64,000 nucleotides of DNA, taken from contig JAZDKJ010000012.1 in the NCBI GenBank assembly GCA_043803105.1, positions 23,337-87,336 of the forward strand. The letters run 5' to 3'. This DNA comes from Candidatus Woesearchaeota archaeon. Its GTDB lineage: Archaea > Nanobdellota > Nanobdellia > Woesearchaeales > JAZDKJ01. The notes beneath the pieces are model-generated. The model ran no database searches. It saw nothing but the letters and a program-made list of their open reading frames with translations, and was not told the DNA's origin. Of the stretch, positions 2 to 42,629 are shown piece by piece (within the stretch, counting starts at the first letter, position 1; each line of letters opens with the position of its first letter). Position numbers and translations under genes: made by a program.

Positions 2-610
2 GTCATTACTGCTGCCAAAGTAAAGACTTTTGGCGAGACAATAGGCACAAAATGCCCAAGGCACGAGCTTACCCTCACTTTGAAAGATGCAACAGTCGGA
101 ACATCAATTAACGCAGATGCAATTAAGGAAAAGATTGCTGAAGAGATGAGGACATGCTATTACAAAATGTCTGGAAAACAGCAGCTTAATCCTTATGCTG
201 AGAGCAAGATGCCTTTTGAAAAACAGAATATCTGCCTGGTCTGCTCAGAGATATCTTTTGCCCCTGACCTTCAGAAAAAGCTTCCGGAAATCAATAACTT
301 TGGTGCTTTCCTGAAGGATTCTAACTATTCATTCATGCAGGTCAAGACAGCAAATGTCCTATGGGCTATTTTTCCAACAACCAAGCAGTACAAAACTACT
401 GAGCTTGGCACAGATTCATTTTCCACAAAGAATGCTTACTACTTGATTTACAATACCGAATCCCCTGATTGGTGGAGGTCAGATAATCTTTTTAACAGGG
501 CACTTCGTGTTGCTCTTGGAGATTTTGCCGTCAGTGACTCTTATTCAGTGATGCTGCTCATGCCCTCTTCTGACATTGGCACTTTGCAGTGCACATCTTA
601 TATAGGCTAG
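2..610 (+). CDS. hypothetical protein, 5' end truncated by window edge (reading frame is open from position 2; listed ATG at 80 is internal)
   Basis: No stop codon upstream in frame to window start; no recognisable motifs. Confidence 0.45.
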   Translation, partial: VITAAKVKTFGETIGTKCPRHELTLTLKDATVGTSINADAIKEKIAEEMRTCYYKMSGKQQLNPYAESKMPFEKQNICLVCSEISFAPDLQKKLPEINNFGAFLKDSNYSFMQVKTANVLWAIFPTTKQYKTTELGTDSFSTKNAYYLIYNTESPDWWRSDNLFNRALRVALGDFAVSDSYSVMLLMPSSDIGTLQCTSYIG

Positions 611-614
611 CACA

Positions 615-1472
615 ATGAAGAAAGCTGAGCTCAAACTGATTGTCATCTTGGTACTTATGCTTGTTTGCATTTCAGTTATGATTTTATTTGAAGGTTCTGT
701 GTCCAAACTTTTTGCAAGTAGCATTGATTCTACTGGCTGCAAGGCTAATGTCATTGAGCATGCTGCTGCCCACCTTAAGATTGTTGACCTGTCCTCAGAC
801 ATTACCTGCCCTGCAGAGAACATCACCCTAAGATCCCAGGACCCAAAAGCCCAGCTTGCTGACTCAATGTACAAGTGCTGGGATAATTGGGGCAAGGGCA
901 AGCTTGACCTTTTTGCTAATGATGGTGTTTATTGTGTGGTCTGTTCCTGGGTTAAATCCAAGGATAAGTCCATGACCCTTACCGGTTTTGACAACTATCT
1001 GTCTACAACAATAATTCCCGGAAGAGGTATAACCTATCTTGATTTTCTTAATGGTTACGAAACTCCAAGGGGAAAAGAGGTTGTTGGCAACCTTCTCGAA
1101 AAGCAATCACAGAATCCCTCTGTCATTTTCGGTGACAAGACCTATTCAGTGATTTTTGTTTACGCGCGCGGTGATGAATTTATCAAGAAATTGTTGGTAA
1201 CCTCTGCCAGCACTGTGGGCCTTCCTGTGATTATTGCTGGCGGCATAATGGTTGTTGCAGGTTTATCAGGGGTTGGTATCCCTTTTGTGTTGTCTGCAGG
1301 AGCCTTGACCGTTGCAGGGTCAGGGACAGCACTCCTTGGAGGTATAGAAGCGTGGTATGAAGCAAAGTTAAGGATGGAAAGGCCTGACCACGTTGCCTTT
1401 GTTGCCTTAAGGGAGTACAATTCCGGCCAGTTGGATGAGCTCGGCTGCAAATCCCTGCCTGCAAAACAGTAA
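615..1472 (+). CDS. membrane/secreted protein with pilin-like N-terminus (MKKA-ELKLIVILVLMLV) and Gly/Ala-rich C-terminal TM segments
   Basis: Short basic n-region + A + long hydrophobic helix, same pattern as neighbours; ORF track. Confidence 0.55.
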   Translation: MKKAELKLIVILVLMLVCISVMILFEGSVSKLFASSIDSTGCKANVIEHAAAHLKIVDLSSDITCPAENITLRSQDPKAQLADSMYKCWDNWGKGKLDLFANDGVYCVVCSWVKSKDKSMTLTGFDNYLSTTIIPGRGITYLDFLNGYETPRGKEVVGNLLEKQSQNPSVIFGDKTYSVIFVYARGDEFIKKLLVTSASTVGLPVIIAGGIMVVAGLSGVGIPFVLSAGALTVAGSGTALLGGIEAWYEAKLRMERPDHVAFVALREYNSGQLDELGCKSLPAKQ

Positions 1473-1653
1473 CTTTTTTATAATGGTCTTTCCAGGTTTT
1501 ATTGATGTTTAATAGGAAGGCTATGGAAAAAAAGGTAATGGAATGGATTGTACTCCTCGCGCTTCTTGGCATTCTTTTGGGAATCATCTTTTACAAGGCC
1601 TATCCTGCCCTGATGTCAAATATCAAGCTTCCGGGCCTATCCTAGGTGAAAAT

Positions 1654-2181
1654 GTGAAGAAAGCAAGTATCTTGTGGGAGCCAATAATGAAGTGGATTAT
1701 TGTTCTAGTTGTAGTTGCATTTGTTTTCATTTTCTTGCTGCCAAAAGTTTTGTACGGTGCAGACAAGGTCTTGTCCTTAATTGGGGTTTCAGGCTCAAAA
1801 TGCTCTTTTACTGCTGCAAAATGCGCAAACTGTCTTTCAATAACCTCTTCTGTGCCCTCAACAATAGAGTTCAGAAAGTCTGACAATTATGCTTCAACCT
1901 CTTGTGAGATTTCTTCATCAACTCTTGCTTTATCCTTTAATGAGAACTTGAAATCACAGAAGGTGGACATCCTGTCCTGTTGCGGCAAAGCCCCAAAAAT
2001 CAAAACAGATTGGACAGGCTCAGCAAAACAGCTTACAATATCTTTGGACAAGAATTCTCTCAAATTCTCAGGCCTGACTTCTAACTGTTATTATCGCCTT
2101 TCTTTCGGCAAAGATTTAATAAGCGAGACCGGCAAGAATATAAGCACTGACCAGGAGGTTATTGTTTTCAAGACAAAATGA
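1654..2181 (+). CDS. secreted Cys-containing protein with class III-like signal; start reassigned to in-frame GTG giving MKKASILWEPIMKWIIVLVVVAF
   Basis: GTG at 1654 restores the MKKA motif shared by adjacent genes; listed ATG 1543 gives an N-extension with no hydrophobic start. Confidence 0.45.
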   Translation: MKKASILWEPIMKWIIVLVVVAFVFIFLLPKVLYGADKVLSLIGVSGSKCSFTAAKCANCLSITSSVPSTIEFRKSDNYASTSCEISSSTLALSFNENLKSQKVDILSCCGKAPKIKTDWTGSAKQLTISLDKNSLKFSGLTSNCYYRLSFGKDLISETGKNISTDQEVIVFKTK

Positions 2182-2456
2182 AGAAGGCTGACCTTTCCAT
2201 GAACATGATTATTCTTGCAGTGCTTGGCATAATCCTTTTGATTGTCCTAGTTGCGTTGTTCACTGGCAAGATTAGGATTTTCAGCAGTAATGTGCTTGGC
2301 TCCTGCGCAGAGCAGGGAGGCACCTGTGCACAACAAGGTAAATGTGATGAAGGCAAGTATATTGCCTGGGCTACTGGCTGCAGTTGTTATCCTCCTGATG
2401 ACAAGGATTGCAAAGACAAAAAGCTCGGCCAATGCTGTCTGCAGGCTCTAAAATGA
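2178..2456 (+). CDS. small secreted cysteine-rich protein (8 Cys) with pilin-like N-terminus MKKADLSMNMIILAVLGIILLIV...LFTGKI
   Basis: ORF; N-terminal basic+hydrophobic helix; Cys-rich C-terminal 50 aa; 4-nt overlap (ATGA) with next gene. Confidence 0.55.
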   Translation: MKKADLSMNMIILAVLGIILLIVLVALFTGKIRIFSSNVLGSCAEQGGTCAQQGKCDEGKYIAWATGCSCYPPDDKDCKDKKLGQCCLQALK

Positions 2457-2683
2457 AAAAAGCTATGGAAATGCTTGGCACAATAATAACTTCGGTACTT
2501 GTGATTGTGGCTATTTTTGTCATGATATTGCTTTTCACAGGAAAGATTGGTATAACAAAAGAGAATCTTTCAAGCTGCACTACAAAGAATGGAGAGTGTG
2601 TGAAGACAGCTGAAGAATGTTCAGGAGGCACTGCCTTGTTCGATTGCCCGTCTTCAAAGCCTGTATGTTGCATTAAACCTTAG
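2453..2683 (+). CDS. small secreted cysteine-rich protein, paralog of the preceding gene (MKKAMEMLGTIITSVLVIVAIFVMILLFTGKI)
   Basis: Internal ATG at 2453 gives MKKA start; shares the LFTGKI motif and Cys-rich tail with 2178..2456. Confidence 0.55.
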   Translation: MKKAMEMLGTIITSVLVIVAIFVMILLFTGKIGITKENLSSCTTKNGECVKTAEECSGGTALFDCPSSKPVCCIKP

Positions 2684-2688
2684 CAGGA

Positions 2689-3135
2689 GTGATAACCGTG
2701 TTTGGAAAAAAAGGTGATGGTGTACTCTGGGAACAAATACTGTATGCTGTGCTTGTAGTTGTAGCGATTGCTGTGATGTTGTATATTTTTGGACCTAACG
2801 CAGCCAGAGCCAGCACCAGCTTTAATAAATACTTTAATCAGGCTGAGCTTACGCAATGTGCTTTGAAAGGTAGCAATGATAAAGATAGGATTGAGCTATA
2901 CTGCAATCCAAACAATAAGGATTATCCGTATCCTGTTAGCTGCGATCCGTGCCTTGGCGCAACAAACACATACGACATGGATGGTGATGGTATGCCTGAC
3001 CAGTGCGAAAAAGACAAAGGCCAGGATGTTAAAAAGACAGAATGCCTGCATGTCAACAAAGCCAAAAAAACACAATGCTGCATGACCACAACTCCCTGCA
3101 ATAATCTTAAAGCAGTAACCATTACCTGCACCTAA
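2689..3135 (+). CDS. secreted cysteine-rich protein (KKG-DGVLWEQILYAVLVVVAIAV class III-like N-terminus; GTG start)
   Basis: SD-like GGAGTG immediately upstream; hydrophobic helix; 11 Cys in C-terminal domain. Confidence 0.5.
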   Translation: MITVFGKKGDGVLWEQILYAVLVVVAIAVMLYIFGPNAARASTSFNKYFNQAELTQCALKGSNDKDRIELYCNPNNKDYPYPVSCDPCLGATNTYDMDGDGMPDQCEKDKGQDVKKTECLHVNKAKKTQCCMTTTPCNNLKAVTITCT

Positions 3136-3136
3136 G

Positions 3137-5152
3137 ATGCCTCTTTACAAGAAAGCCTTCAGTTCTGTGATGATGGAGGTTGTTGTCCTTATCCTGGTGG
3201 TAGTTGTCATCCTAGCTTCCGGAAAATGGACTTATTCTATGGCATCCTCTCTGTTTGGCAACAAGCAAGGCACTGTGGAGAGCTTTGAGATTGTCTCAAA
3301 GAGTATGCAGGCTCTTGCCAATAGTCAGACTGTTTTTGCCTCTGACAATGCAAACCTCATGATTTTGCAGGATAGTTATGTGATTGTTGGTTTTGACAAA
3401 ACTGAGCAAAAGTCTGTGAGTTCCTGCGAGAGCCGCGAGGCCCAAAAGCCTCCTGTCTGTGCTGGTAGCGCCTGCATCTGCCTTTTCAAATTTGATGCAC
3501 TTGATAAGCCTGTGCAGTGCACAATCCTCTATAATGTTGACCGGGTCTTCACAATCAATTATGATTCTGATTACAGCAGCCGTTTTAAGGTTCCTGAAGC
3601 CTATAGCTTCAACTCCCTAGGCTCACAAGCATACATTTTCAATGACAACTACAAATCATCTTTTTCCTCCACAATTCAAGGAGTGTCAAATCCTGCAGTT
3701 AGCTATTCGCATCTTTTCCTCTTTGGCAATTGCCCGAATGAGCATATTTCCAGAAGTTTTGCAGCCCATAACTTTTACATTGAGAAGTTTGTCGACGCCA
3801 CGCAGAAGAAGACCTATTTCCTTGTTGCCTATGCTGATGAATTTACCATTGCGCACTCTGAGGAGATAAGAAAGAAGTTCGGCTCAAAGAGTCCTGCCGA
3901 GTACGAAAAGCTGATTTCCGAGCTTCTTGCGTCAAAAAATCCTGAGCAGGCTGTTGCAAAGTTCTCTGAGTTCAAGGCAGCTTATCCGCTCGCAAATCTT
4001 TCAAATGCAACTTACCAAAAGCTTTTGCAGTACCTTCTTCCAAAGACCTCAAAAGAGGAGTTGGCCATAGCCTTGCAGATTGTTGATGATTATCTCAAGT
4101 TCTTTCCTAATGATGACAAGACTCAGGAGATGCTCTATAATCAGGGCTTGTTTAACATGCTTCTTGATGATGTTGATGCAGCTAAGGAGTCATTTGACAA
4201 GGTTATTGAGACTAATGCCAAGTCTGAACTGGCAAAAAAGGCTGAAGACATGCTGGACGCTGTCTCAATCATAAAAGAAGATCCCGGCCTCACAGGCGAG
4301 TCAAGCCAGGCTACAATTAAGAGGTTAACTGAGGAGATTTCATCAGAAAAGGATGATTCCAAGCTCGGCGAGCTCCATTATGGGCTTGGTGTTGCTTACC
4401 TTGTCGCAAATATTAGGTCACGCTCAACCATTTATCCAAGAGATCTTGCAGTAAACGAGTTTGCTACAGTAATCTCAAAATATCCTGTAAGCGAGTATGC
4501 TGATGTTTCTTGCTACAATCTCGGCCTTGTCTACAGCTCTTTGGCTGAACAAAATGAAAAAGACCATCAAAAGGCTTGTGAATATTTCGCTAAAGTTTAC
4601 CAGGATTACCCCTTTGGCAAGTCTGTCTTTAATGAGGACTTGAGCACTCTTGCTGCTGACAAAATCAAAAGGTTTGACTGCAATGTGGACGAGTATGATA
4701 CATTTGATTCTTCTTCATATACAGAACCTGCTCCTTCTGACGTTTCAACTGATGTCTTAGACCCAAAACTTCAAGGCCTCACTCCTGAGACTGTTGAGGA
4801 CGTCAAGAAATTGCAGACTGCATTGAATGCTAAGTTTGTTATTCATGAGGGCTACGCAACCACCGGCCATCTGCCTGGCTCACTTCATTATGTAGGCAAG
4901 GCAGTTGACTTTCACATCACTGGAACAAGCCTAACATATCTCGAGCAGATCGATGCAATGAATCAAGCACTCATTGGTTTAAAAATTGCAGACAACGGCT
5001 TTGGTATCTATCCTGATTGGCGTAATCCTGGCTTTCACTTCGATACCCGTGGCAAGGTTGCAAGATGGGGCTGGCTCAGCAAGCATGAGGTCTCTTATCA
5101 GGCTGCTCTGGATTACGCAAAGGCGCATGCACCAGCAACTGCTGTTGGCTAG
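3137..5152 (+). CDS. membrane-anchored protein with central TPR-like helical repeats and a C-terminal peptidase M15 (YcbK/MepK-like, Peptidase_M15_3) domain
   Basis: C-terminus HEGYATTGHLPGSLHYVGKAVDFH ... NGFGIYPDWRNPGFHFDTRG matches the zinc-binding SxHxxGxAxD and GxGxY...FxHxDxR motifs of M15A/M15_3 peptidases; N-terminus MPLYKKAFSSVMMEVVVLILVVVVIL. Confidence 0.65.
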   Translation: MPLYKKAFSSVMMEVVVLILVVVVILASGKWTYSMASSLFGNKQGTVESFEIVSKSMQALANSQTVFASDNANLMILQDSYVIVGFDKTEQKSVSSCESREAQKPPVCAGSACICLFKFDALDKPVQCTILYNVDRVFTINYDSDYSSRFKVPEAYSFNSLGSQAYIFNDNYKSSFSSTIQGVSNPAVSYSHLFLFGNCPNEHISRSFAAHNFYIEKFVDATQKKTYFLVAYADEFTIAHSEEIRKKFGSKSPAEYEKLISELLASKNPEQAVAKFSEFKAAYPLANLSNATYQKLLQYLLPKTSKEELAIALQIVDDYLKFFPNDDKTQEMLYNQGLFNMLLDDVDAAKESFDKVIETNAKSELAKKAEDMLDAVSIIKEDPGLTGESSQATIKRLTEEISSEKDDSKLGELHYGLGVAYLVANIRSRSTIYPRDLAVNEFATVISKYPVSEYADVSCYNLGLVYSSLAEQNEKDHQKACEYFAKVYQDYPFGKSVFNEDLSTLAADKIKRFDCNVDEYDTFDSSSYTEPAPSDVSTDVLDPKLQGLTPETVEDVKKLQTALNAKFVIHEGYATTGHLPGSLHYVGKAVDFHITGTSLTYLEQIDAMNQALIGLKIADNGFGIYPDWRNPGFHFDTRGKVARWGWLSKHEVSYQAALDYAKAHAPATAVG

Positions 5153-5194
5153 ACCAAAAGCTTTAATAAATGCGCTTTCTGTTTCTTGCCTTAA

Positions 5195-6253
5195 ATGAAA
5201 AAAAGAGGTTTTGGTCTTAGAGCCAGTCTTGACCCTACTCACCATCTTTATCTTGTGTTATTTGAGTTGTTTCTGGTTGCAATAGTCTTCATTGCCTTGA
5301 TGTCTTATGTCAAGTCTTTGCAGGAAAATACATTGCTTGAGAAGAGCTATCTTTCAAAAGACCTGGCCTTGCTCTCAACTGCAATCTACTCCAGTCCCGG
5401 TGATGTTTTTTACGTCTACACTCATCCAAAGATTGGCTTGCAGCGCTACAATTTCATTTTCCAGCAGGGCTCTGTAATAGTTTCTGATGCATCTTCCTAC
5501 AAGATTTCTTATCCTTATGGCCTAAGCCCTAAGATAAAGGCTTCTTCAATCAGCATTGACAAGCCGATTGGCATCCTTTTCTCTCTTTCCGATTCTAATC
5601 TTTACATCACTGCCTCAACCCTTGAACAAACCATCTCATGCCCTGATGTGGAAACTAAGGCTTCTGGAGATAGGATTGTTGCTATAGATCCTGGCCATGG
5701 AGTTGACACAAGGCTCTCTAGTCCGACCTCAGCCTCAGGTGCAGGCTCTGTCTTTGGCACTTTAATCGAGCAGGACTTGACCAAAAATATTGGCTCAGCC
5801 CTCTCTTACCAGCTCAATCAGGCCGGTGTTAAAACCATCGTTACTAGTTCAGGTGACAGTTTTGTTTCAATGCAGGAGAGGCTTTCCACTGTTTCCAGGG
5901 ATGATGTTTCGTTGGTCATTAGCCTGCATACAGGCAATGAATTGCCTCCATTCAACGGGATTCGCGCCTTCATCTATTCATCCTCTTCCAAGTCATTGCA
6001 GAGCGAAAAGCTTGCCTGCCTTGTTTTGAAGCAGTTTGCCCTCAAATTTCCAGCGATTACCTCTATTGAGTTGAACAGGCTCGATGCCTCAGCACTTGAA
6101 GGTATCGATAATCCAATGCTTGTTTTGTATGGCGATAAGCCTTCTGTGCTGATCGAGATAGGTAATCTCCAGCTTGAATCAGGCTTGTTGAAAGAACAAT
6201 CACCTTCGATTGCAGAGCCTATTGTGAAGGCTATCCAGAGTTACTATGAATAA
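5195..6253 (+). CDS. N-acetylmuramoyl-L-alanine amidase (Amidase_3 family) domain protein with N-terminal membrane anchor
   Basis: IVAIDPGHGVDTR ... VSLVISLHTGN ... GIRAFIYS ... PSVLIEIGNLQLESG follow the Amidase_3 pattern (DxGHGG...DLFxSIHAN...E.Y...VLVELGFxSN). Confidence 0.7.
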   Translation: MKKRGFGLRASLDPTHHLYLVLFELFLVAIVFIALMSYVKSLQENTLLEKSYLSKDLALLSTAIYSSPGDVFYVYTHPKIGLQRYNFIFQQGSVIVSDASSYKISYPYGLSPKIKASSISIDKPIGILFSLSDSNLYITASTLEQTISCPDVETKASGDRIVAIDPGHGVDTRLSSPTSASGAGSVFGTLIEQDLTKNIGSALSYQLNQAGVKTIVTSSGDSFVSMQERLSTVSRDDVSLVISLHTGNELPPFNGIRAFIYSSSSKSLQSEKLACLVLKQFALKFPAITSIELNRLDASALEGIDNPMLVLYGDKPSVLIEIGNLQLESGLLKEQSPSIAEPIVKAIQSYYE

Positions 6254-6881
6254 GAAGAGTGAGATTTCAGATTACATGATTGCCTTTGTTCCTAGGTTTC
6301 TCTTTCTTGTTGTGATGCTTGTCAGCATTTATTTTCTTGTGCACACATATGTAAAGACTGAAGTTGACACCTTTGATGCAGAGTCTGCTCTGTTTGTTGA
6401 CCGCCTGATTTACTCAAGGGATGGGTTATGCCAGATGTCCCAGGGCCAGGTTACTCCAGGAATTATTGATGCTTCAAGGCTTCAATACCTTGAATCCAAC
6501 CTGACCAAAAATATTGTCTATCCTGATTCACGGCACATTGCTGCAAAAGTTTCGATTAAGGATATGGGCTCTGCTGAGCTTTTTTCTTTTTATTACAACA
6601 AGGATTGGTTTGATAGGTGGATTGTGCTCTCAAAGTACTCAGGCAGCAGCGCATCCACTGTTTCCAGGAGGAGCCTTTACTTCCTGTTGAAAGGAAAATC
6701 TGAGCTTGATAAGCTCTTGTTGAAGAACCAGATTTCCGGGCTTCAGTCCGACCCGTTGTTTGCCTCAAGCCAAGAGCTTGTGCCATTGCAGAAGCAGCTT
6801 GATGAGCTTTCCAAAAAGCCTAAAGATGATGCTATCATTCCAGTTTGGCTGGAAATTATTGTGGTGATGCCAAATAGTTAA
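6246..6881 (+). CDS. hypothetical membrane-anchored protein (MNKKS-EISDYMIAFVPRFLFLVVMLV)
   Basis: ORF track; pilin-like N-terminus; overlaps the preceding gene by 8 nt. Confidence 0.5.
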   Translation: MNKKSEISDYMIAFVPRFLFLVVMLVSIYFLVHTYVKTEVDTFDAESALFVDRLIYSRDGLCQMSQGQVTPGIIDASRLQYLESNLTKNIVYPDSRHIAAKVSIKDMGSAELFSFYYNKDWFDRWIVLSKYSGSSASTVSRRSLYFLLKGKSELDKLLLKNQISGLQSDPLFASSQELVPLQKQLDELSKKPKDDAIIPVWLEIIVVMPNS

Positions 6882-7394
6882 GAGAGCTCTTCTTTCACCA
6901 AATCTTCTTGATTTTTATGCATACATAGCTTTCTGCGTAGTCCTGATCATTTTTTTCCTCCTGTTTTCAATAAGTCCGACCAAATCCATTGAAAGCATTT
7001 CCTCAAAACAGATTTCAACAGATTCTGGCCTTATCCTGATTAATCTGCTGAAGACTCCTGCCTCTCAGAGTAGCAGCGTCTCTGATATTCTGCTCACCGC
7101 GTCAGATTCTGATGATTTTAAGTCATTTGCATCATACGCAAAGCCTGTTATTGAGCAATTTGTTGCGTCTAACTTCGATGATTGCTGCTATGAGTTATCG
7201 GTTGTTAAGGCAGGCTCAGCGATTTTTGTGCTGACCACGGAAAATTGTGAGCTTTCAAAATTAAATGAGGTCTCTGCGTCAGTCAGTGTTCCGCCGAAAG
7301 ACCCGAAAAAGGCAGGCCTTGATGTTGTGCTAACCCTTTACAGGTCTTACCTTGTTGGCGGAAACATTGGTGCTACAAGGATGCAGAGTTCAGT

Positions 7395-9572
7395 TTGCAA
7401 GTACAAAAAATGAAAAAAGCCTTTGTTTTCAACATCAGCTTGGTTTTCATAACTACTATTGTGTTAATGTCCATCTTCCTTGTCCTCCAGTCCAAGAGAA
7501 GCTCTCTTGAGCTTGACAATCTTGGTTCAAGGCCTCTTGACCTTATCAGTTCTTATGAGTCAGGGGAGTCTATTAGGTTTTTCATAGAGCAGTCCTTAAG
7601 GAATAGCTTTGGACAGTCTGTTTTTGATCTGGCTTCAAACGGTGGTTTTGTAGAGTATAGCAAGTGCGGCTCTTATCTTGGTTATCAGCTCTGGCAGCCA
7701 GAATGTTTTCCAAATCTTGATTCAGAGTTCAATAAGCGTTTGCAGCTTGTTTTTGGAGACTTCTTGCTCACTTACAAGCAGGAGTTGCCTCTCTCGTATT
7801 CTTCAGCCATCGAATCTAAAGACCCCCTCAAGGTTTCTGCCTTCCCTAACACGCCAATCACCATTGATGTCTTCACTAAGAAGCTCACCTCAGTGAAGCC
7901 TGGTTTTTGGGCTAAGCTTGTTGCAAAAATATCTGGCGCAACTTTGCCTGAGCCTTCTGATTTGAGCAAAGCCCCCAAGTTTGTTTCAAAGAATAGCAAA
8001 GGAGTAATGAACAATATCTATATTTTATACAGCAGCTCTCTTTCAAGGTACACAATTGATTATCCTCAGGTGTCAAAGTCATTGATCGCAGGCGTGATTG
8101 CTCAGGAGTCTAAAGGAGACCCATTTGCTATTGGCACTCTTGGCACCAGTGCAGGCCTGACCCAATTTGAGCTTGCAACAGCCAAAGGTTTTCCACAGGT
8201 TTTCAAGAAATTGACTGATTGTGCGTGTTCCGGCTCTAAGTGTAAGCTTAGTGCCTTGTGCAACCCTTCTAATGATGACAGGTTAAATCCAGATATTTCA
8301 ATAAAGGGTTCTTTTGTTTACTATGCATCGCTATTAAATAGCTTTTCAAAGTTCTCTTCAGCCACAGAGTTTGCAGTTGCTTCTTACAATGGAGGAGAGT
8401 CTGTCATCAGGAAGGCCATTTCATCAACAGGCTTGTCCAATCCTTCATGGCCACAGGTTTCTGCTGCTTTGCGGCCTGAGCTCATTACATATATATCATC
8501 TGAGTCTGCAAGGCTTCGTAAAGTCGAGATTATAAGGAACTATGTTAAGGCAGTAATGGCCTATAAATCAGAATATGAGTTGCTTGACCAGGCTCAAAAG
8601 CAGCAGGCTTACGAAGAGAAAAAAAAGGACCTTGCTAAGACTCATGATTGCTGTTTCTGCTCGCAAAAGTGCGGTTTTGATTGCTCTCTTGTTCCTGTCC
8701 CAGAATCTCAGGCCTGTGGCCCCCTTTCTATTGGCATTGGTGTTAATTGTGATGTATCTTCTTGTTCCCTTCCGCAGACCTCCACTTCAACATACCAATT
8801 TAGGCCTGTAGTGGCTGCCTCGTCAAATTATAATCTGACAACCTACCAGCGCATCCAATACCTTCTTACCTCAAATAACGGACTCCTTGCCAATCTTGCA
8901 ACCTGTTCTTCTGCCAAGCCTTTGGCAGTTTGCCTCGCTCCCTTGTCATCAGTTATGTCAGAAAAAGACCCTAGCCTAAAGTGGGGTTTTGACCTTGATT
9001 GTGATTCAAATGCAGAGATGGTTTTTGACAGGTTTGCTGAAAATCTTCTTTTGTGTTCAATGTCCGCTACAGATAATTGTGTATGTAATCTTGCAATGGA
9101 CATTGGTAAGCAGATGGTCCCTGACGGCACTTTTGAAATCAAGCTCTCAAATTCTGGCTCAACCACTGTTCTGCAGTCAGACAAGGTTAAGGACTTCACT
9201 GTACCTGTTTTATCAAGCATTTTCCTGAGGTCCATGACATCATCTGAAAAAGCAGATTTCAAATATGACATAAACTACAGGAAGGGTGTTTTCTACAAGG
9301 CAAGCCTTAACACTGCAAATTATGTTTCTGTTTTGGGCAAAAATGTGAGGATTGTGAAGCAGGGAAAGGCCTTGACATTTGTTGATGATGAGGTTTTTGC
9401 TGCATCATTTGCCTCAATGCCCTCTTGCACTGTTCAGAAGGATACTCTACGAGTTTGCGTCTCAAGGCTTATTTCAGGCAAGCCTGAGCAGGTTTATGCA
9501 TTCAACCCATTGACAGGCAAGGTCGAGCCTCGTAACCTGGTGTATAGGTTTGCGATTAAAGCCTCTGTTTGA
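7395..9572 (+). CDS. large secreted protein with lytic transglycosylase (SLT/GH23 lysozyme-like) domain
   Basis: VIAQESKGDPFAIGTLGTSAGLTQFELATAKGF and VASYNGGESVIRKAI match SLT catalytic motifs (E-S ... GLMQ ... AYNAG); N-terminus MKKAFVFNISLVFITTIVLMSIFLVL. Confidence 0.65.
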   Translation: MQVQKMKKAFVFNISLVFITTIVLMSIFLVLQSKRSSLELDNLGSRPLDLISSYESGESIRFFIEQSLRNSFGQSVFDLASNGGFVEYSKCGSYLGYQLWQPECFPNLDSEFNKRLQLVFGDFLLTYKQELPLSYSSAIESKDPLKVSAFPNTPITIDVFTKKLTSVKPGFWAKLVAKISGATLPEPSDLSKAPKFVSKNSKGVMNNIYILYSSSLSRYTIDYPQVSKSLIAGVIAQESKGDPFAIGTLGTSAGLTQFELATAKGFPQVFKKLTDCACSGSKCKLSALCNPSNDDRLNPDISIKGSFVYYASLLNSFSKFSSATEFAVASYNGGESVIRKAISSTGLSNPSWPQVSAALRPELITYISSESARLRKVEIIRNYVKAVMAYKSEYELLDQAQKQQAYEEKKKDLAKTHDCCFCSQKCGFDCSLVPVPESQACGPLSIGIGVNCDVSSCSLPQTSTSTYQFRPVVAASSNYNLTTYQRIQYLLTSNNGLLANLATCSSAKPLAVCLAPLSSVMSEKDPSLKWGFDLDCDSNAEMVFDRFAENLLLCSMSATDNCVCNLAMDIGKQMVPDGTFEIKLSNSGSTTVLQSDKVKDFTVPVLSSIFLRSMTSSEKADFKYDINYRKGVFYKASLNTANYVSVLGKNVRIVKQGKALTFVDDEVFAASFASMPSCTVQKDTLRVCVSRLISGKPEQVYAFNPLTGKVEPRNLVYRFAIKASV

Positions 9573-9614
9573 TTATACAAAATTATATAAATGTCTCAAT
9601 AACCCTTCACTCTT

Positions 9615-10616
9615 ATGATTCAGATTCCGCTGGCAGATGTTTTGTCAAAGATCAAGGAGAAGACCGGTCTTTCTGATGAAGAGATTAATTCCAGGATTGC
9701 ATTGAAGCTAAAACAGCTCTCAGGCCTTATCTCCAGGGAGGGAGCTGCCCACATTGTTGCAAATGAGCTCGGCGTCAAGCTTTTTGAGAATCTTTCAGGT
9801 AAGCTTCAGATAAAGAACATTCTTGCTGGCATGCGCGATGTTGAGACCATTGGCAAGGTTCTTTTTGTGAACGAGCCTCGTGAGTTCCAGTCAGAGAACC
9901 GCTCTGGCAAGGTTGGTTCCATTGTTATAGGAGATGAGACTGGTACTATTAGGATTGTCTGCTGGGGCAATCAGGCAGACAAGATGTCTTCTGTTGTTCA
10001 GGATAACATTGTCAAGATTAAGGGTGGCTATGTGCGAGAGAATAATGGCATAAAAGAGGTTCATCTTAATGACCGTGGCCTGTTGATGGTCAACCCCAAG
10101 GGTGAGACTGTTGGCGAGGTTAAATCTCAAGCTCTTGAGAAGCCTGCCAGAAAGACAATAAAGGAACTGCAGGAGAACGATAATAATGTTGAGGTCCTCG
10201 GTACAATTGTCCAGGCCTTTGAGCCGAAGTTCTATGAGGTCTGCCCTCAGTGCAACAAGCGCCTGAAGCAGTCTGATTCAGGTTTTGTATGTGACCAGCA
10301 TAGCTCTGTTGTTCCAAGTTATGCCTATGTTCTTAACCTCTTTCTTGACGACGGTACAGAGAACATTCGCGTTGTTTTCTTCCGCGACCAGGTTGAAAAG
10401 CTTGTCAGCAAGTCAAAGGAGCTGATGCTCTCAATGCGCGACAAACCCGAAGAGTTTGAGACTTTGAAGACAGAGCTTCTTGGGAACATCATTAAGGTCT
10501 CCGGCAGGGTTACAAAGAACCAGATGTTTGACCGCCTTGAGCTTGTCGCAAGGTCTGTTGACCCTTCCCCTAATCCTCAGGAAGAGATAGATCGCCTTAA
10601 GCCAAATGATGGCTAG
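9615..10616 (+). CDS. rpa: replication factor A (RPA, ssDNA-binding protein) with OB folds and zinc ribbon
   Basis: N-terminus MIQIPLADVLSKIKEKTGLSDEEINSRIALKLKQLSGLISREGAAHIVANELGV typical of archaeal RPA; CPQC...C..H zinc finger. Confidence 0.75.
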   Translation: MIQIPLADVLSKIKEKTGLSDEEINSRIALKLKQLSGLISREGAAHIVANELGVKLFENLSGKLQIKNILAGMRDVETIGKVLFVNEPREFQSENRSGKVGSIVIGDETGTIRIVCWGNQADKMSSVVQDNIVKIKGGYVRENNGIKEVHLNDRGLLMVNPKGETVGEVKSQALEKPARKTIKELQENDNNVEVLGTIVQAFEPKFYEVCPQCNKRLKQSDSGFVCDQHSSVVPSYAYVLNLFLDDGTENIRVVFFRDQVEKLVSKSKELMLSMRDKPEEFETLKTELLGNIIKVSGRVTKNQMFDRLELVARSVDPSPNPQEEIDRLKPNDG

Positions 10617-11070
10617 GACCCACGCTGCCTTCGGCCTTTTGTGTGCCTTGTGTGCCTTGTTTTTCATCAGTTTCTTCAGTAAGGACATGATCATTCCAGT
10701 AGTTGCTGTCATCTTTGCTTTGGTGCCTGACATCGACACTCCAAAGTCTTTTGTTGGCAGGCGCCTCGGCCCAATTTCTTATGTCATCAATTTCCTGTTC
10801 GGTCACCGCAGGCTTTTTCATGCTGTTTGGCTCCCCACATTGCTTTTTGTTGTGTTTGCAAGATTCAATCTGTCTGTGGCTATTGGTATTGCCATTGGTT
10901 ATCTTTCCCACCTTGTGCTTGACTTGTCTAATGACCGAGGCATTCAGCCCTTATATCCATTAAGATTTCACATAAGCGGACCATTTAAAACCGGAGGCTT
11001 TTTCGAGGTTTTGATTTTTATTGTAATTGTATCTTCTGATTTTCTCATTTTATTGAGAATCTTTGGCTAA
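10606..11070 (+). CDS. membrane-bound metal-dependent hydrolase-like protein (YdjM/DUF457-like)
   Basis: Multi-TM protein with conserved His (HRRLFH, SHLVLD); weak family assignment. Confidence 0.4.
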   Translation: MMARTHAAFGLLCALCALFFISFFSKDMIIPVVAVIFALVPDIDTPKSFVGRRLGPISYVINFLFGHRRLFHAVWLPTLLFVVFARFNLSVAIGIAIGYLSHLVLDLSNDRGIQPLYPLRFHISGPFKTGGFFEVLIFIVIVSSDFLILLRIFG

Positions 11071-11104
11071 TCTTTATAAGATATTATTAGCATGCCAACT
11101 TATT

Positions 11105-11851
11105 ATGAAAGGTTTAATAGTTGCTGTTGGTGAAAAGGACTCTATCAGCAGAGACAGGACATCCGAAATTAGGGGGTTATCAGAGTACGCCAGTATGCCT
11201 GTTGTTAAGCATATTCTGATGAGCTTTGACAAGATAGGCGTGAATGAGACACTTTTGCTTGTGAATCCAAATCACAAAAGGCAGTATGAACAGGCACTGT
11301 CTGGCTATAATGGTGTAAGACTAGAGGAAACAAGAATCCCTTCATCTGATGTAACCTTTTCTTATATTGATGGTTTCGGTCGCTTAGGTACAGGAGACCA
11401 CATTATTGCATCTCCTGATGATTGCCTTTTTACGTTTTCTCTTGAAGGTTTGATGAGCAGGTTCAATGGCATTGCAGATACTGGCATGGGTGTTATGGCA
11501 GTAAGAAATAAAGTTCATATTCAAGATGATAATTTTGCAGAATCTAATTACGGTTGGTGCACTGTTGACAAAGCGGGCAGGTTTACTGAAGTCAAATCTT
11601 CTTTTCATGACAAGAACAAGCCTTGGCCAGAGAACCGCGCTTTTGTGACTCTTGACCTCAGCATAATCCATAAGGATATGATATGCTCTTTGCTGAAAGA
11701 TATCCAGAAACCCAACATCCAGGGCGAGCAGCTTATCAGGAAATACTCAACACAGTTCTATGCTTGGGTAATTAACGAAGGTGCGTGGTTTGACATCGGC
11801 AAGCCCAGCTCAAGAAAGAAAGCTGAAGAGTACTTTTCTTCTTTACATTAG
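11105..11851 (+). CDS. nucleotidyltransferase-fold protein (degenerate sugar-nucleotidyltransferase-like)
   Basis: MKGLIVAVGEK...VVKHILMSF..GVNETLLLVN resembles the N-terminus of NTP-transferases but lacks GxGTRL; start moved to internal ATG. Confidence 0.35.
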   Translation: MKGLIVAVGEKDSISRDRTSEIRGLSEYASMPVVKHILMSFDKIGVNETLLLVNPNHKRQYEQALSGYNGVRLEETRIPSSDVTFSYIDGFGRLGTGDHIIASPDDCLFTFSLEGLMSRFNGIADTGMGVMAVRNKVHIQDDNFAESNYGWCTVDKAGRFTEVKSSFHDKNKPWPENRAFVTLDLSIIHKDMICSLLKDIQKPNIQGEQLIRKYSTQFYAWVINEGAWFDIGKPSSRKKAEEYFSSLH

Positions 11852-11961
11852 TTGCCACTTATCCACTGGACATTCACGCGTAGCCTATTTAAGCCATTTC
11901 CTTCTGTTATATTGCATTGACTCCAGCCCCTGGGGCCCTAGTAGCTCATAACTAAGGGGGT

Positions 11962-12273
11962 TTGAAACAAAACGCGAAAGCAATGGAGATTAAAATGAAA
12001 CAAGAAAATAAGGTGGGGCCTGAAAAAAGGTTTAGTGCTGGTGCAGTTAACGCCAACATCTGGAGAAATGAGGTCCCTAACAAGACCGCAGGAACTTCTG
12101 GGTATTATACAATAAGCTTGCAGCGAAGCTATAAGGACAAGGCTGGCAAATGGCAGAACTCTAGTTCTATGCGCATAAACGACCTGCCAAAGGCTGCTTT
12201 AGTCCTTAGTAGGTCTTACGAGTACCTGGTTCTTAAGGAGAACCAGGAAGATACTGCGGATTCTGCGTATTAG
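11962..12273 (+). CDS. hypothetical protein
   Basis: ORF track only. Confidence 0.35.
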   Translation: MKQNAKAMEIKMKQENKVGPEKRFSAGAVNANIWRNEVPNKTAGTSGYYTISLQRSYKDKAGKWQNSSSMRINDLPKAALVLSRSYEYLVLKENQEDTADSAY

Positions 12274-12275
12274 AG

Positions 12276-13310
12276 GTGAAAAAAATGACAAAAGCTTTAT
12301 TAATCGCCAAGACTATCAGGCAGGAAGGTGAAGTGATGGTAAAGAATGATCGCAAGGAATTGTCTGTTGAAGACTTGCCCGGTGTTGGCCAGACCACAGC
12401 AGAGAAATTAAGGGAGACTGGTTACACAAGTCTTATTGCTGTTGCTGTTGCCTCTCCTGCTGAACTTGCAGAGACAGCTGGTGTAACCGACGCTGCAGCA
12501 AGAAAGATGATTGCCTTTGCACGCTCTTCTATGAGGATGGGTTTTGAATCAGGCACTGACCTGTTGAAGAAGCGTGAGCTGGTAATTAAAATCCCTACTG
12601 GCTCTGCAGAATTTGACAGATTGATGGGTGGTGGCTTTGAAACTGGAGCAATTACAGAATGCTTTGGTGAGTTCGGCTCAGGCAAGACGCAAATTGCCCA
12701 CATGTTGTGTGTTAATTGCCAAAAGCAGGACCCTGAATCTTATGCAGTATATATTGATACAGAGAACACTTTCCGCCCTGAGCGAATAATTGAGCTTGCC
12801 AAGGGCGCTGGCCTTGATGAGCATCAGGTTCTGAGCCATATCAAGGTTGCAAGGGCTTATAATTCAGACCATCAGATGCTCCTGGCAGAAAAGGTTGAGG
12901 ATATTATCACAAATCAGAAGCTCAATGTCAAGGTTGTCATTGTTGATTCCCTTACCGCACATTTTAGGGCTGAGTTTATTGGTCGTGGTACCTTAGCTGA
13001 AAGGCAACAAAAGCTCAATCGCCACATGCATGTTTTATTGAAGCTTGCAGATGTGAACAACACTTGCGTTTACGTAACTAATCAAGTCATGGCAAGGCCC
13101 GACGTATTTTTCGGCGACCCGACCCAGGCCATTGGCGGTCATATTGTGGCCCATGCCTCTACCTTTAGGATTTATTTAAGGAAAGGCAAGAAAGGCTCAA
13201 GGGTTGCAAAGCTTGTTGATGCTCCTAATCTGCCTGACGGCGAAGTTGGCTTCTATGTTACAGAAGGCGGCCTAAAGGAGCTTTCGGTAACAAAGCTTGC
13301 AGAAGAATAA
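12276..13310 (+). CDS. radA: DNA repair and recombination protein RadA
   Basis: N-terminal HhH (LPGVGQTTAEKLRETGYTSL), Walker A GEFGSGKTQIAHMLCVN, RecA-fold core; an alternative start at 12336 is preceded by GGTGA. Confidence 0.9.
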   Translation: MKKMTKALLIAKTIRQEGEVMVKNDRKELSVEDLPGVGQTTAEKLRETGYTSLIAVAVASPAELAETAGVTDAAARKMIAFARSSMRMGFESGTDLLKKRELVIKIPTGSAEFDRLMGGGFETGAITECFGEFGSGKTQIAHMLCVNCQKQDPESYAVYIDTENTFRPERIIELAKGAGLDEHQVLSHIKVARAYNSDHQMLLAEKVEDIITNQKLNVKVVIVDSLTAHFRAEFIGRGTLAERQQKLNRHMHVLLKLADVNNTCVYVTNQVMARPDVFFGDPTQAIGGHIVAHASTFRIYLRKGKKGSRVAKLVDAPNLPDGEVGFYVTEGGLKELSVTKLAEE

Positions 13311-13934: not shown

Positions 13935-14465
13935 ATGAGGTTGTTCATAGCTCTGGACTTTGTTGAGCATAAAGATTATTTTATTAAGCTACAAGAGGAG
14001 TTCAGTAAGCCTGGAAGATACAGCCTCCCCAAATCTTTTCATTTGACCCTGAAATTTCTTGGCGAGGTGCCGGATTCAAACATTTCCCAAATCAAGGATG
14101 CTCTTTCCAAGGTTTCATTCAAGCCCTTTAGCCTAAGATTGAATAGGTTGGGTGTTTTTCCGAGCCTTAGTTATGTTCGTGTTCTTTGGGTTGATGTCCT
14201 TCCCTTGGAAGAGGTTTCAACCCTTCAAAGGTCAATCGATGCTGCTTTGCGTGGATGGTTTGCTCCTGACAATAGGTTTCATCCTCATATTACACTAGCA
14301 AGGGTTAAGTCCATTGCTGACAAACAGAAATTTGATGAGCTGCTCAATAATCAGGTTGAGGTAAAGACTGTTGTCATTGAATCTTTTAACCTGATTAGAA
14401 GCGTTCTGTCTTCGAAAGGTCCTTCCTATGAGTTGGTTGATGGTTTTCGAGCGCAAGATATTTAA
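13935..14465 (+). CDS. thpR: RNA 2',3'-cyclic phosphodiesterase (ThpR/LigT, 2H family)
   Basis: Two H-x-T/S-x motifs: HLTLKFLG and HITLARV. Confidence 0.8.
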   Translation: MRLFIALDFVEHKDYFIKLQEEFSKPGRYSLPKSFHLTLKFLGEVPDSNISQIKDALSKVSFKPFSLRLNRLGVFPSLSYVRVLWVDVLPLEEVSTLQRSIDAALRGWFAPDNRFHPHITLARVKSIADKQKFDELLNNQVEVKTVVIESFNLIRSVLSSKGPSYELVDGFRAQDI

Positions 14466-14489
14466 GCGCAGTTTCTCTAAACTTAATAA

Positions 14490-16040
14490 ATGGTTTCAAA
14501 AAGGGGTGATTCTTACACTGTTCTTTATGGTGTTCTTGTTGTTTTGGTTGGCTTGATTGTGATTTTTGGCTTTCGTTCGATTGTTCAGTTGAACCAGAGT
14601 GCTCAGGATGTAAAGGTTTTGCAGTTCATTACAAGTTTGGATGAGGATGCACAGACTATGTCTTCTAAGGTTGGCTCTCTAACTCAATCAACCTACTCTC
14701 TTCCTATGGTTGTTAACGAGGTCTGTTTTGCTGATTTACAGACTTCACCTGAAAGTATTGGTAGTGCTCTTATCGGGAAATACTCTTTCATTAAACGCTC
14801 TGTCGAATCTGGTTCTGGTAAGAATGTTTTTTTGGTTGGTGACAAGTTTTTTGATTCGTATTCTGTTCCCAGCCTGCATTTAGATGATGGAGTCATGTTT
14901 GCTTGCCTGAATCCTGAGGCTAAGGTTTTGTCTCTTGACCTTAAGGGTTCTGCTAAAGGTGCTGTGCTTGTTAAGGGTTGGAGGGTTGAGCGCACTCTCT
15001 CTACCTCTGCGACTACTGATATTGTTTCTGCTGATAGTTCAGCATTAATGTCTGTTCCTGCCGGCGCTTCTGCCTCTCCAACACTTTCTGTTGAGGTTAT
15101 CTCTCATCCAGGCTACGATTTCTTGAGTGAGGCCTATAAGTTTGGTCCATCAGGAACAGTTTTTGATCCGGCTGCAACCATTTCAATCTCCTTCAATCCC
15201 GCTGAGATAACAGTCTGTCCGCCTGGCAGGGCACAATTTGTCTTCAAGCTGTACGATGACAATAATCAATTCATTGAGGACCTTCAGTATGATTCTGTTG
15301 ATTGTGTTAGTCATGTTATGACTTTCAGGCTTGACCATTTCAGTTGGGGAGGCATTGCTGCTGTCCAGGCGACACAATATACGCTCAACGTTGTTATTAA
15401 CAATGAGGGGACTGTAATAGCCAAGGTTGGTGGAAATATAGTTCCTTTACCGCTTACTGCTGACTTCGGAGCTGTGGTTCACCTTGTGGCTGGTCCGAAT
15501 TTTGTTGGGTGGAGTACCATTCCAGCTGTTGCGCCTTTTAGTTCAGCTAACACTCTCTATCAAACGTTGACTGCGACAGGTACGATTTACGCCAATTTCC
15601 GTGCTAGTGGTCTTACGGGCAAATGGGCTAGTGTTTTAGCCAATGGATACAAGTGCAATGTCAAAAACACGTACATCGGAATTGGCTATCACGAGAGGGG
15701 AATACCGGGGGCCATAGATGTTGCCCCCAATCAAATAACCTACTTCATTATTGATCCAACCGGATACACTGGACTTGATTATAGCGGCAGAAACATTGTC
15801 GTTAGGGCACTTGACTACGATCAAAGTAATACAGGCACGTCAAAAGATACGGTATCCAAAGCCAGATTGATTGTAGTGGATCGCAATGGCAATGAAATTG
15901 TAATTTATAATCTTGGTGGAGAAAATAACAATTTTGTTGGCACTGTTCAATGTGATGCCACCACCAAAGATAGGATTTATATTGTTGAGCACAAGCAGGG
16001 AGATTTAAGAGGAGCTCAGATATCCTCCTGGTGGCCGTAA
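14490..16040 (+). CDS. surface protein paralog 1 (class III-like signal KRG-DSYTVLYGVLVVLVGLIVIF; conserved N-module, InlB-B-repeat-like middle module, variable C-terminus ending GDLRGAQISSWWP)
   Basis: ORF; near-identical 5' 280 bp to paralog 2; preceded by TATA-like ATATTTAAG about 26 bp upstream of the ATG. Confidence 0.7.
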   Translation: MVSKRGDSYTVLYGVLVVLVGLIVIFGFRSIVQLNQSAQDVKVLQFITSLDEDAQTMSSKVGSLTQSTYSLPMVVNEVCFADLQTSPESIGSALIGKYSFIKRSVESGSGKNVFLVGDKFFDSYSVPSLHLDDGVMFACLNPEAKVLSLDLKGSAKGAVLVKGWRVERTLSTSATTDIVSADSSALMSVPAGASASPTLSVEVISHPGYDFLSEAYKFGPSGTVFDPAATISISFNPAEITVCPPGRAQFVFKLYDDNNQFIEDLQYDSVDCVSHVMTFRLDHFSWGGIAAVQATQYTLNVVINNEGTVIAKVGGNIVPLPLTADFGAVVHLVAGPNFVGWSTIPAVAPFSSANTLYQTLTATGTIYANFRASGLTGKWASVLANGYKCNVKNTYIGIGYHERGIPGAIDVAPNQITYFIIDPTGYTGLDYSGRNIVVRALDYDQSNTGTSKDTVSKARLIVVDRNGNEIVIYNLGGENNNFVGTVQCDATTKDRIYIVEHKQGDLRGAQISSWWP

Positions 16041-16185
16041 AAAGAACGGCGGACAGCAGTTGACCAATTAAAATTAACGAGGGCAGATTTCCCAAACACA
16101 ATTTTTTACTTTTTCTGGAATGTTATATTCGAAGTTCTGTCCTCGGCAGGGCCTTCGTATGAGTTAATCGAAGGTTTTCGAGCGG

Positions 16186-16200
16186 AAGATATTTAAACGC
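16186..16200 (+). promoter_or_regulatory. BRE/TATA-like element (GATATTTAAAC) about 26 bp upstream of the paralog-2 ATG, implying a leaderless transcript; equivalent elements at about 14456, 18037 and 19758
   Basis: Conserved in all four repeat units. Confidence 0.4.
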
Positions 16201-16220
16201 AATTTCCCCCAACTTAATAA

Positions 16221-17855: not shown

Positions 17856-18065
17856 ATATCTCCCGGGACAAATATCTTCGATGAAATTTGCGTTTGGTTT
17901 TATTATTGGCAATTTATGCCTCATTTTTCTCTCGAATTCTGCACTGGCTCAGTCCCTTTCTGGCATATTATATTCGAAGTTCTGTCCTCGGCAGGGCCTT
18001 CGTATGAGTTAATCGAAGGTTTTCGAGCGCAAGATATTTAAACGCAATTTCTCCCAACTTAATAA

Positions 18066-23572: not shown

Positions 23573-23582
23573 AATCTTTCAG

Positions 23583-42500: not shown

Positions 42501-42629
42501 ATGTCACATTATTTTCTATATAGAAAATAATCATGCGATAATTCGTAGATTTTTCGCATATCTGTGCTTTTTTACCGACGACAAAACACCACCAAAAGGC
42601 TTATAAAAGGACAAAAATTCTGTCTTACC

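Follow-up and report, generated by a model that had tools for sequence, protein, structure and literature searches.

A window of 64,000 nt from Candidatus Woesearchaeota archaeon (the whole stretch of DNA analysed) encodes three murein hydrolases, comprising an M15/LAS zinc peptidase, an Amidase_3 amidase and an SLT lytic transglycosylase, and their open reading frames (ORFs) were all present on the forward strand at 3137–5152, 5195–6253 and 7395–9572. The initial annotation linked them to an organism that attaches to, feeds on or kills bacteria, or to an antibacterial weapon cluster. They are not a free-standing trio, however: they occupy the 3' half of a larger operon (2–9572) with 12 genes or more, which encodes pilin-like proteins; its catalytic heads are exchangeable or absent among related loci, and its amidase is dead or truncated in several lineages. 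The best reading of this arrangement, for which belief and doubt were about evenly balanced, is a surface- or pilus-displayed toolkit that breaches murein during contact with bacteria.

The cluster genes are co-directional and tightly packed, with gaps mostly of -19 to +5 nt. The 5' end of the array was cut by the window edge. The genes and catalytic domains are given below, with related loci denoted by L numbers:

2–610, forward strand: 5'-truncated first gene with a frame open from base 2; ortholog of L001_4166 (258 aa, with a class III-like, i.e., prepilin-type, N-terminus), 32% identical to residues 78–258 of that protein (blastp, E = 5e-30)
615–1472, forward strand: conserved 285-aa pilin-like core protein with a class III-like motif (MKKA/ELKLIVILVLMLV), 30–44% identical to orthologs in L001, L002, L004 and L006 (blastp)
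1523–1645, forward strand: 40-aa hydrophobic mini-ORF, assigned by position only, in the same place as ORFs of 37–50 aa (L001_5988, L004_5403)
1654–2181, forward strand: 175-aa pilin-like protein with a GTG start at 1654 (VKKA/SILWEPIMKWIIVLVVV); ortholog of L001_6131
2178–2456, forward strand: 92-aa small Cys-rich pilin-like protein (8.7% Cys; MKKA/DLSMNMIILAVLGIILLIVLV), a candidate major subunit, with a 4-nt overlap with each neighbouring gene
2453–2683, forward strand: 76-aa small Cys-rich pilin-like paralog, 42% identical to the product of 2178–2456, with a class III-like motif
2689–3135, forward strand: 148-aa Cys-rich pilin-like protein (KKG/DGVLWEQILYAVLVVV); orthologs L004_8037 and L006_7615
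3137–5152, forward strand: 671-aa scaffold protein with a class III-like N-terminus, a conserved N-region, TPR/BamD-like repeats and a C-terminal M15 head
4757–5152, forward strand: M15/LAS zinc peptidase domain (H578, H584, D591, H634, D636)
5195–6253, forward strand: 352-aa Amidase_3 protein in which two helices, the N-terminal one hydrophobic, and a beta domain (aa 71–140) precede the Amidase_3 domain
5678–6238, forward strand: Amidase_3 catalytic domain (H168, E192, H245, E321)
6246–6881, forward strand: 211-aa conserved cluster protein (MNKKS/EISDYMIAFVPRFLFLVVML) with orthologs in 4/4 compared loci
6874–7413, forward strand: 179-aa product of a gene whose start codon appears to be ATA ((M)VKRA/LLSPNLLDFYAYIAFCVVLIIFF)
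7395–9572, forward strand: 725-aa SLT scaffold protein with a class III-like N-terminus, an N-domain (aa 1–120), the SLT head and a Cys-rich C-terminal region
8061–8432, forward strand: SLT (GH23) lytic transglycosylase domain (catalytic E238, GLTQ, SYNGG)

While the three enzyme ORFs of the initial annotation were all recovered, the ORF list on which it was based had missed a fourth gene between the amidase and the SLT gene, at 6874–7413. This frame is open but has no ATG, GTG or TTG start; an ATA at 6874 overlaps the upstream stop codon, which reflects either a non-canonical start or a sequencing error. Its product was 36.5% identical to L001_11713 (blastp, E = 4e-41). For the SLT gene, the ATG at 7410 is the more likely start, which gives the 720-aa protein annotated by NCBI. 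Two 42-nt gaps, at 5153–5194 and 9573–9614, contained the TATA-like elements GCTTTAATAAAT and AAATTATATAAA, each approximately 25–30 nt before the next ATG. These suggest an internal promoter for the amidase-to-SLT genes, a promoter belonging to RPA itself and leaderless mRNAs; the position of the second element relative to the RPA start suggests that RPA is a separate transcription unit. A scan for sigma-70 promoters and terminators produced counts near the level of shuffled sequence, the models being bacterial and wrong for archaea.

The operon was syntenic in eight further independent loci (L001, L002/3, L004/5, L006/7, L011, L013, L014/18 and L021/22), which stem from different samples and assemblers. 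In the window (9615–13310) and in all related loci, the operon was followed in constant order by RPA, YdjM, a small ORF of approximately 100 aa and RadA. The RPA-YdjM-RadA synteny held although the amidase-fold proteins shared only 26–46% identity between loci; it may reflect either a functional link to DNA handling or a merely conserved neighbourhood.

Comparison by blastp showed that the scaffold portions were orthologous between loci while the catalytic heads differed. The N-terminal part of the M15 scaffold (aa 5–510) was orthologous to L001_7677, L006_8099 and L004_8540; the first of these carried an NlpC/P60 head, the second a glucosaminidase with VanY/M15, and the third had TPR only and no head. 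Similarly, the SLT scaffold had an SLT head in L001 and L013, NlpC/P60 in L002_12093 (E = 1e-18), Peptidase_M15_3 in L014_11558 (E = 9e-9) and M23 with SLT in P0016 (L021), while its ortholog carried TSP3 in L006 and no head in L004_11941. Six murein hydrolase families were therefore found on the scaffolds: M15, Amidase_3, SLT, NlpC/P60, GH73 glucosaminidase and M23. Judged from these alignments, the conserved unit is the pilin-like assembly, into which murein hydrolase modules have been plugged repeatedly. Since all six families recur on the same scaffolds, selection appears to favour the cleavage of murein rather than any one chemistry. The recurrence of different murein-specific families on one scaffold was also the strongest internal argument for murein as the substrate; this part of the initial annotation was strengthened by the NlpC/P60, GH73, M23 and M15_3 heads of the relatives.

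The relatives in GTDB genomes all belonged to Woesearchaeota, with the exception of one record titled Methanosarcinales. This record (L011, CAYYOI010000002.1, 'uncultured Methanosarcinales archaeon') carries a Woesearchaeota-type pilin-like operon and is probably mis-binned or mislabelled. In L021, a polysaccharide deacetylase gene (Polysacc_deac_1, 14445–15194) was situated directly after RPA, and the last scaffold protein was a fusion of M23 and SLT with a length of 1033 aa.

The presence of an Amidase_3 domain at 5195–6253 was borne out by sequence and structure. The Pfam profile (PF01520) matched aa 162–348 over profile positions 1–173 of 174 (E = 3.2e-18; 66.8 bits against a cut-off of 27). 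The structure was predicted with a pLDDT of 84.9, and its best Foldseek match was AmiC2 (5emi; E = 4.7e-12, TM 0.82), followed by 4rn7 and CwlV (1jwq) with TM values of approximately 0.8. The zinc ligands and catalytic Glu aligned with those of 5emi at H168 (DPGHG), E192, H245 (SLHTG) and E321 (LIEIGN). In the model, the enzyme domain follows two helices, the N-terminal one long, and a small beta domain, a predicted layout compatible with a pilin-like stalk bearing a head. Homologs of the amidase-fold protein were few, and the named ones came from Woesearchaeota. All four residues were kept only in P0001–P0006, which form the clade of the window; they were lost in P0007, P0009–P0011 and P0012, while the first His was Lys in P0008. 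By locus, the ligands had all gone from the L002 clade and from L004, and the first His was replaced with Lys in L006, where the subunit is probably non-catalytic. The protein was conserved over its full length in most loci but reduced to its N-domain in L014. From these comparisons, the amidase-fold protein is a core subunit that is catalytically dead or truncated in several lineages.

The SLT domain at 7395–9572 was likewise recovered well above the Pfam cut-off (PF01464; aa 223–346, E = 2.4e-11, 43.7 bits against 21.3) and matched the endolysin family PHROG 669 (E = 1e-10). Its motifs, AQ-E238-S, GLTQF and SYNGG, were kept in P0015, P0016, P0017 and L001. These correspond to the hallmarks of GH23, namely a catalytic Glu within an E-S motif, a GLMQ-like motif and an AYNxG motif. 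Sequence searches aligned no solved PDB structure to the SLT region.

The M15 domain was the least conspicuous of the three and was established indirectly. Only TPR_6 and YfiO (TPR/BamD-like repeats, approximately aa 250–500) matched the 671-aa protein above the Pfam threshold, and the NCBI annotation described it as a TPR protein and nothing more. Peptidase_M15_2 matched aa 581–644 (E = 0.009) below its cut-off of 27, scoring 16.2 bits with the whole protein and 19.7 bits with the isolated domain. Sequence searches of PDB gave no match to the region. The isolated C-terminal domain matched a PHROG endolysin family (E = 7e-5). Word-indexed homolog searches returned a single match for the M15 protein and four for the SLT protein, but an exhaustive HMMER scan of 1.84 billion representatives produced 373 relatives of the M15 domain, mostly of approximately 145 aa. 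Among 42 of these that were sampled, 16 matched Peptidase_M15_2 (best E = 9e-10) and ten matched M15_3. In the alignment of these 42 sequences, H578, H584, D591 and H634 were invariant and D636 nearly so, and the His-x6-Asp...His zinc triad was present. The PHROG match, the M15_2 and M15_3 matches of the relatives and the invariant residues together confirmed, at the level of sequence, a genuine LAS/M15 zinc peptidase with intact catalytic residues. Hence, of the domains proposed in the initial annotation, Amidase_3 and SLT were recovered above their profile cut-offs while M15 fell below its own and was supported through its relatives and invariant residues. The YcbK/MepK-like label held as far as the M15/LAS domain and its triad, but the assignment to MepK was unjustified because the structural neighbours of the domain, which has the LAS fold, differ in bond specificity (they span DD-, LD- and L-Ala-D-Glu peptidases) and because the NCBIfam model for MepK (NF053624) scored 17.8 bits, far under its cut-off of 185.

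The M15 domain was also observed in other settings. Stand-alone proteins of approximately 146 aa share 48–50% identity with the M15 head, and at least one of them belongs to a mobile-element context. A stand-alone relative of the M15 head (P0021, 152 aa, 49% identity), in L019/L020, adjoins a 3302-aa helicase/methylase-like protein and an integrase, among small ORFs; from its gene content, this context may represent a mobile-element pool from which the M15 head may stem. Two metagenome proteins of 1635 and 2623 aa (P0030 and P0169), named 'endonuclease YncB (thermonuclease family)', carry the same domain at 44% identity, which suggests that fusions of a nuclease and a wall peptidase occur elsewhere.

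The contig itself is archaeal (DPANN), as the initial annotation had maintained, and a bacterial or chimeric origin was not borne out. It contains an archaeal RNase P RNA (46209–46549, forward strand), an archaeal signal recognition particle RNA (62594–62867, reverse strand) and the archaeal marker genes RPA, RadA and a RadB-like gene. G-C content was approximately 0.43 and flat across the cluster, and the three enzyme proteins matched, at 100% identity, NCBI entries from a 182-kb contig of a metagenome-assembled genome named Candidatus Woesearchaeota archaeon. No tRNA genes were found across the 64 kb. A gene for a bacterial-type DNA gyrase A was observed at 42564–45065. A chimeric assembly with bacterial DNA was rejected because the G-C content was flat and the gene order repeats in independent assemblies. 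A phage origin was rejected also; only two weak tblastn matches were obtained in GenBank phages and none in IMG/VR. The explanation that the enzymes are an artefact or mobile DNA, whether a chimera or an integrated viral or plasmid lysis cassette, can draw on the integrase-bearing, phage-like context of P0021 and on the PHROG endolysin families that match all three domains. However, the same order beside RPA and RadA in the eight further loci effectively refutes it and, with scaffold portions that are specific to Woesearchaeota, leaves it hardly credible.

In nearly every cluster product, a few basic N-terminal residues lead up to [KR][GA], after which approximately 20 hydrophobic residues follow. 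The initial annotation had noted pilin-like N-termini on all three enzymes, and the pattern was present in each: LYKKA/FSSVMMEVVVLILVVVVILA in the M15 protein, MKKA/FVFNISLVFITTIVLMSIF in the SLT protein and GLRA/SLDPTHHLYLVLFELFLVAIVFIAL in the amidase. Further examples from related loci were MKKAQGLSLNIIILAAIALLVLIIL and MKKGQGLSMNVIIIAALALLVLVVL. At archaeal prepilin peptidase sites, position -2 is positively charged and position -1 is small, with cleavage N-terminal to the H-domain (PMC3387779, PMC6098224). Using criteria from these sources, the class III test was a simple pattern scan for [KR][GA] plus hydrophobic residues, rather than FlaFind. The motif occurred in 8/11 cluster ORFs of the window, or in 9/11 if translation from the GTG at 1654 is assumed, compared to 8/56 other window ORFs, where several of the eight positive control ORFs look like genuine members too. 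Among related loci, it was found in 13/14 ORFs for L001, 12/15 for L004 and 14/16 for L006. By this pattern, the cluster N-termini resemble the archaeal class III (prepilin) signal.

The preferred reading, of a murein-breaching toolkit displayed on the surface or on a pilus, can be set out as follows. Positions 2–9572 represent most of a Woesearchaeota-specific operon for a dozen type IV pilin-like surface proteins. These would be exported via their class III-like N-termini, which a prepilin peptidase would cleave, and would then either stay at the membrane or become part of a fibre or tip complex. The small Cys-rich subunits probably form or prime the fibre or a membrane-anchored surface assembly. 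In the large subunits, the N-terminal hydrophobic helix would act as an anchor or assembly handle to which the murein hydrolase heads are attached. The LAS/M15 peptidase would cut the stem peptide or cross-link, the Amidase_3 enzyme the MurNAc-L-Ala bond and the SLT transglycosylase the glycan strand. While the archaeon attaches to or parasitises a bacterium, as host or as prey, the assembly would thereby make a local opening in the sacculus of that bacterium. The wall of a contacting bacterium is the likely target because archaea make no murein. The more specific proposal, that a type IV pilus-like fibre or surface complex with interchangeable murein hydrolase minor subunits pierces the wall of a bacterial host, is advanced tentatively and was thought rather doubtful. 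A role for the apparatus in the uptake of DNA or nucleotides, which the invariant RPA/RadA synteny might indicate, is more speculative.

Several observations weigh against this reading. Neither an ATPase of the PilB/FlaI type nor a PilC/TadC platform protein nor a prepilin peptidase of family A24 occurred among the ORFs scanned in the window, a set that took in part of the small ORFs and included 30 further ORFs searched for these genes, and precomputed Pfam matches gave no pilus assembly genes or prepilin peptidase within 10 kb on either side of L001–L007 and L021; pilin genes are, however, often unlinked from pilB and pilC (PMC6098224). The small pilin-like proteins had no significant Pfam or NCBIfam match, to a known pilin family or otherwise. 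No cell-wall-binding domain (LysM, SH3, PG_binding, SPOR or similar) was detected by Pfam in the three enzymes at E <= 1. The same type of N-terminus is found on other surface proteins of the genome; being used more widely, it may not denote a pilus but serve for export or anchoring in general. Finally, the L004 operon is without a detectable hydrolase and the amidase is dead in several lineages, which implies that murein cleavage is not the core function of the operon.

Tethered scavenging is the main and a serious rival, albeit one that is on balance unlikely. Membrane-anchored hydrolases would digest free peptidoglycan debris or dead cells, without a pilus or a live target, to release amino sugars and D- and L-amino acids for an auxotrophic DPANN cell, and the N-termini would be cleaved or uncleaved anchors. 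The enzymes and export signals fit this equally, class III-like N-termini are widespread in the genome and no pilus assembly genes lie nearby. Moreover, it was proposed that Pacearchaeota may obtain amino acids from peptidoglycan necromass (PMC11537232), and the Sulfolobus bindosome shows that class III signals occur on nutrient-acquisition proteins. However, simple ectoenzymes would have no need of the approximately nine small pilin-like subunits without enzyme domains that surround them and are conserved between distant lineages, the scaffolds are kept in lineages with dead or absent heads, and there is no muropeptide or amino-sugar transporter adjacent to the operon.

The pseudo-amidases raise another explanation, whereby the hydrolase folds serve chiefly for structure or binding, or have a substrate other than murein, such as a glycoprotein, glycan or chitin-like polymer belonging to the cell itself or to its host; the name murein hydrolase would then claim too much. 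The amidase-fold subunit is retained although it is clearly non-catalytic in L004 and the L002 clade, and probably so in L006, and despite its reduction to the N-domain in L014; Pfam found no peptidoglycan-binding domain, and Strock et al. warn against taking a catalytic domain by itself as proof that murein is the substrate (PMC12352652). This explanation is improbable, given that the clade of the window conserves the four amidase residues (P0001–P0006), the H/D/H triad of M15 and the catalytic Glu of SLT, and given that six murein-cleaving families on the scaffolds are hard to square with another shared substrate.

A further alternative concerns the cell's own envelope. Bacterial type IV secretion systems, type III secretion systems and flagella come with dedicated lytic transglycosylases, and DPANN carry many bacterial-type genes; the archaeon might possess a murein-like wall of its own, through whose sacculus the enzymes insert a trans-envelope pilus. 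This was considered very improbable. The contig is archaeal, no Mur, PBP or MraY genes were found among the scanned ORFs of the 64 kb, the enzyme heads vary or vanish between close relatives, and published surveys treat these lineages as murein-free.

In relation to published work, murein hydrolases in Woesearchaeota are already known. SLT proteins were noted in DPANN in 2013–2015 and surveyed in 2021–2022 (PMC8204110, PMC9723730), and hydrolases were reported by Castelle 2021 (PMC8204110), Vigneron 2022 (PMC9723730) and Strock 2025 (PMC12352652). The surprise that the initial annotation expressed at finding such enzymes in these archaea is weaker in consequence, since SLT, M15 and Amidase_3 had already been catalogued in Woesearchaeales (PMC12352652, PMC8204110, PMC9723730); table S2 of Strock et al. 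2025 includes LysM+SLT, LysM+Peptidase_M15 and LysM+Amidase_3 proteins (PMC12352652). Archaeal peptidoglycan hydrolases (PGHs) were shown to kill bacteria, while antibacterial gene clustering in archaea was not yet established according to the same authors (PMC12352652). Woesearchaeota and Pacearchaeota were proposed to be episymbionts or predators of bacteria (PMC8204110, PMC9723730), and the census of archaeal type IV pili by Makarova (2016) did not cover these lineages. The literature searched gave no account of the fusion of PGHs with a pilin-like scaffold, their clustering in a conserved operon, head exchange or the retention of a pseudo-amidase.

The present proteins share features with several systems. 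Like the archaeal PGHs of Strock et al., which are prominent in Nanoarchaeota and Woesearchaeales, they have bacterial-type murein hydrolase domains and a proposed bacterial target (PMC12352652). However, those PGHs join a catalytic domain to one that binds the cell wall, and their signals, where present, are of the Sec/Tat type, whereas the three enzymes here have no detectable binding domain, so that none combines both domain types in one protein, and instead have class III-like N-termini, a pilin-like operon and exchangeable heads. The SLT proteins of Woesearchaeota and Pacearchaeota (fam00969; PMC8204110, PMC9723730) have the same GH23/SLT domain, occur in the same lineages and were proposed to serve attachment to or attack on bacterial walls, but they are single proteins of up to 3,000 aa from isolated genes, for which no operon, pilin-like scaffold, companion enzymes or head swapping were described. 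In the Sulfolobus bindosome, functional globular proteins with prepilin-type signals are thought to form a pilus-like surface structure (PMC3387779); its cargo consists of solute-binding proteins, and it depends on an identified Bas ATPase and membrane system, for which no equivalent was found at the present loci.

Bacterial and phage machines offer other parallels. VirB1, FlgJ, T7 gp16 and phi29 gp13 are hydrolases attached to a fibre, needle or tail that open the wall locally, and combinations of glycan-cleaving domains with M23 or other peptidases recur among such machine-associated hydrolases. The glycan-cleaving and M23 pairing is comparable to P0016 (M23 with SLT). Yet the machine-associated hydrolases are not fused to pilins and act on the producer's own wall or that of a phage host, whereas here the producer is an archaeon without murein. 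The Tae/Tge effectors of the type VI secretion system and the pneumococcal CbpD, LytA and LytC are arsenals of amidases, peptidases and glycan-cleaving enzymes used against neighbouring bacteria; they differ in their delivery routes and in needing immunity proteins, which are presumably needless where the producer lacks the target.

DPANN account for a large share of archaeal diversity, and the locus is a conserved and tractable candidate apparatus for contact between Woesearchaeota and their hosts. From the hydrolase families present in a lineage, one might guess what kind of wall its bacterial partner has. The locus also bears on two questions from the 2025 survey, the clustering of PGH genes and the exit route of PGHs without Sec/Tat signals, and the swap-in heads and dead amidase exemplify how a surface machine can recruit enzymes and retain pseudoenzymes. 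If the more specific proposal of a wall-piercing fibre or complex is correct, the operon would encode a cross-domain, contact-dependent, wall-breaching organelle without a described counterpart, and would explain how many archaeal PGHs that lack a signal are exported.

Similar N-termini were observed in other genes of the window, including a tandem array:

14490–21359, forward strand: four tandem paralogs (516, 544, 506 and 523 aa) with class III-like N-termini (MVSKRG/DSYTVLYGVLVVLVGLIVIFGF)

These paralogs were 61–70% identical and had no Pfam match. Their first 130 aa or so were homologous to the pilin-like cluster-head gene of L006 (L006_29_598; E = 1e-9 to 1e-11), and on the basis of this homology they may belong to the same system as additional subunits or adhesins. 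The forward strand at 23544–24503, 28629–29273 and 29273–31357 also encodes unannotated proteins whose N-termini are of the class III-like or signal-anchor type (MQKRG/QITIILVLVVFIV). The latter two are paralogs with 30% identity and adjoin glycosyltransferase genes. Among the minor observations, overlapping ORFs at 27405–28016 and 27997–28635 (forward strand) contained the N- and C-terminal halves, respectively, of a family-2 glycosyltransferase domain, which may denote a frameshift or a pseudogene.

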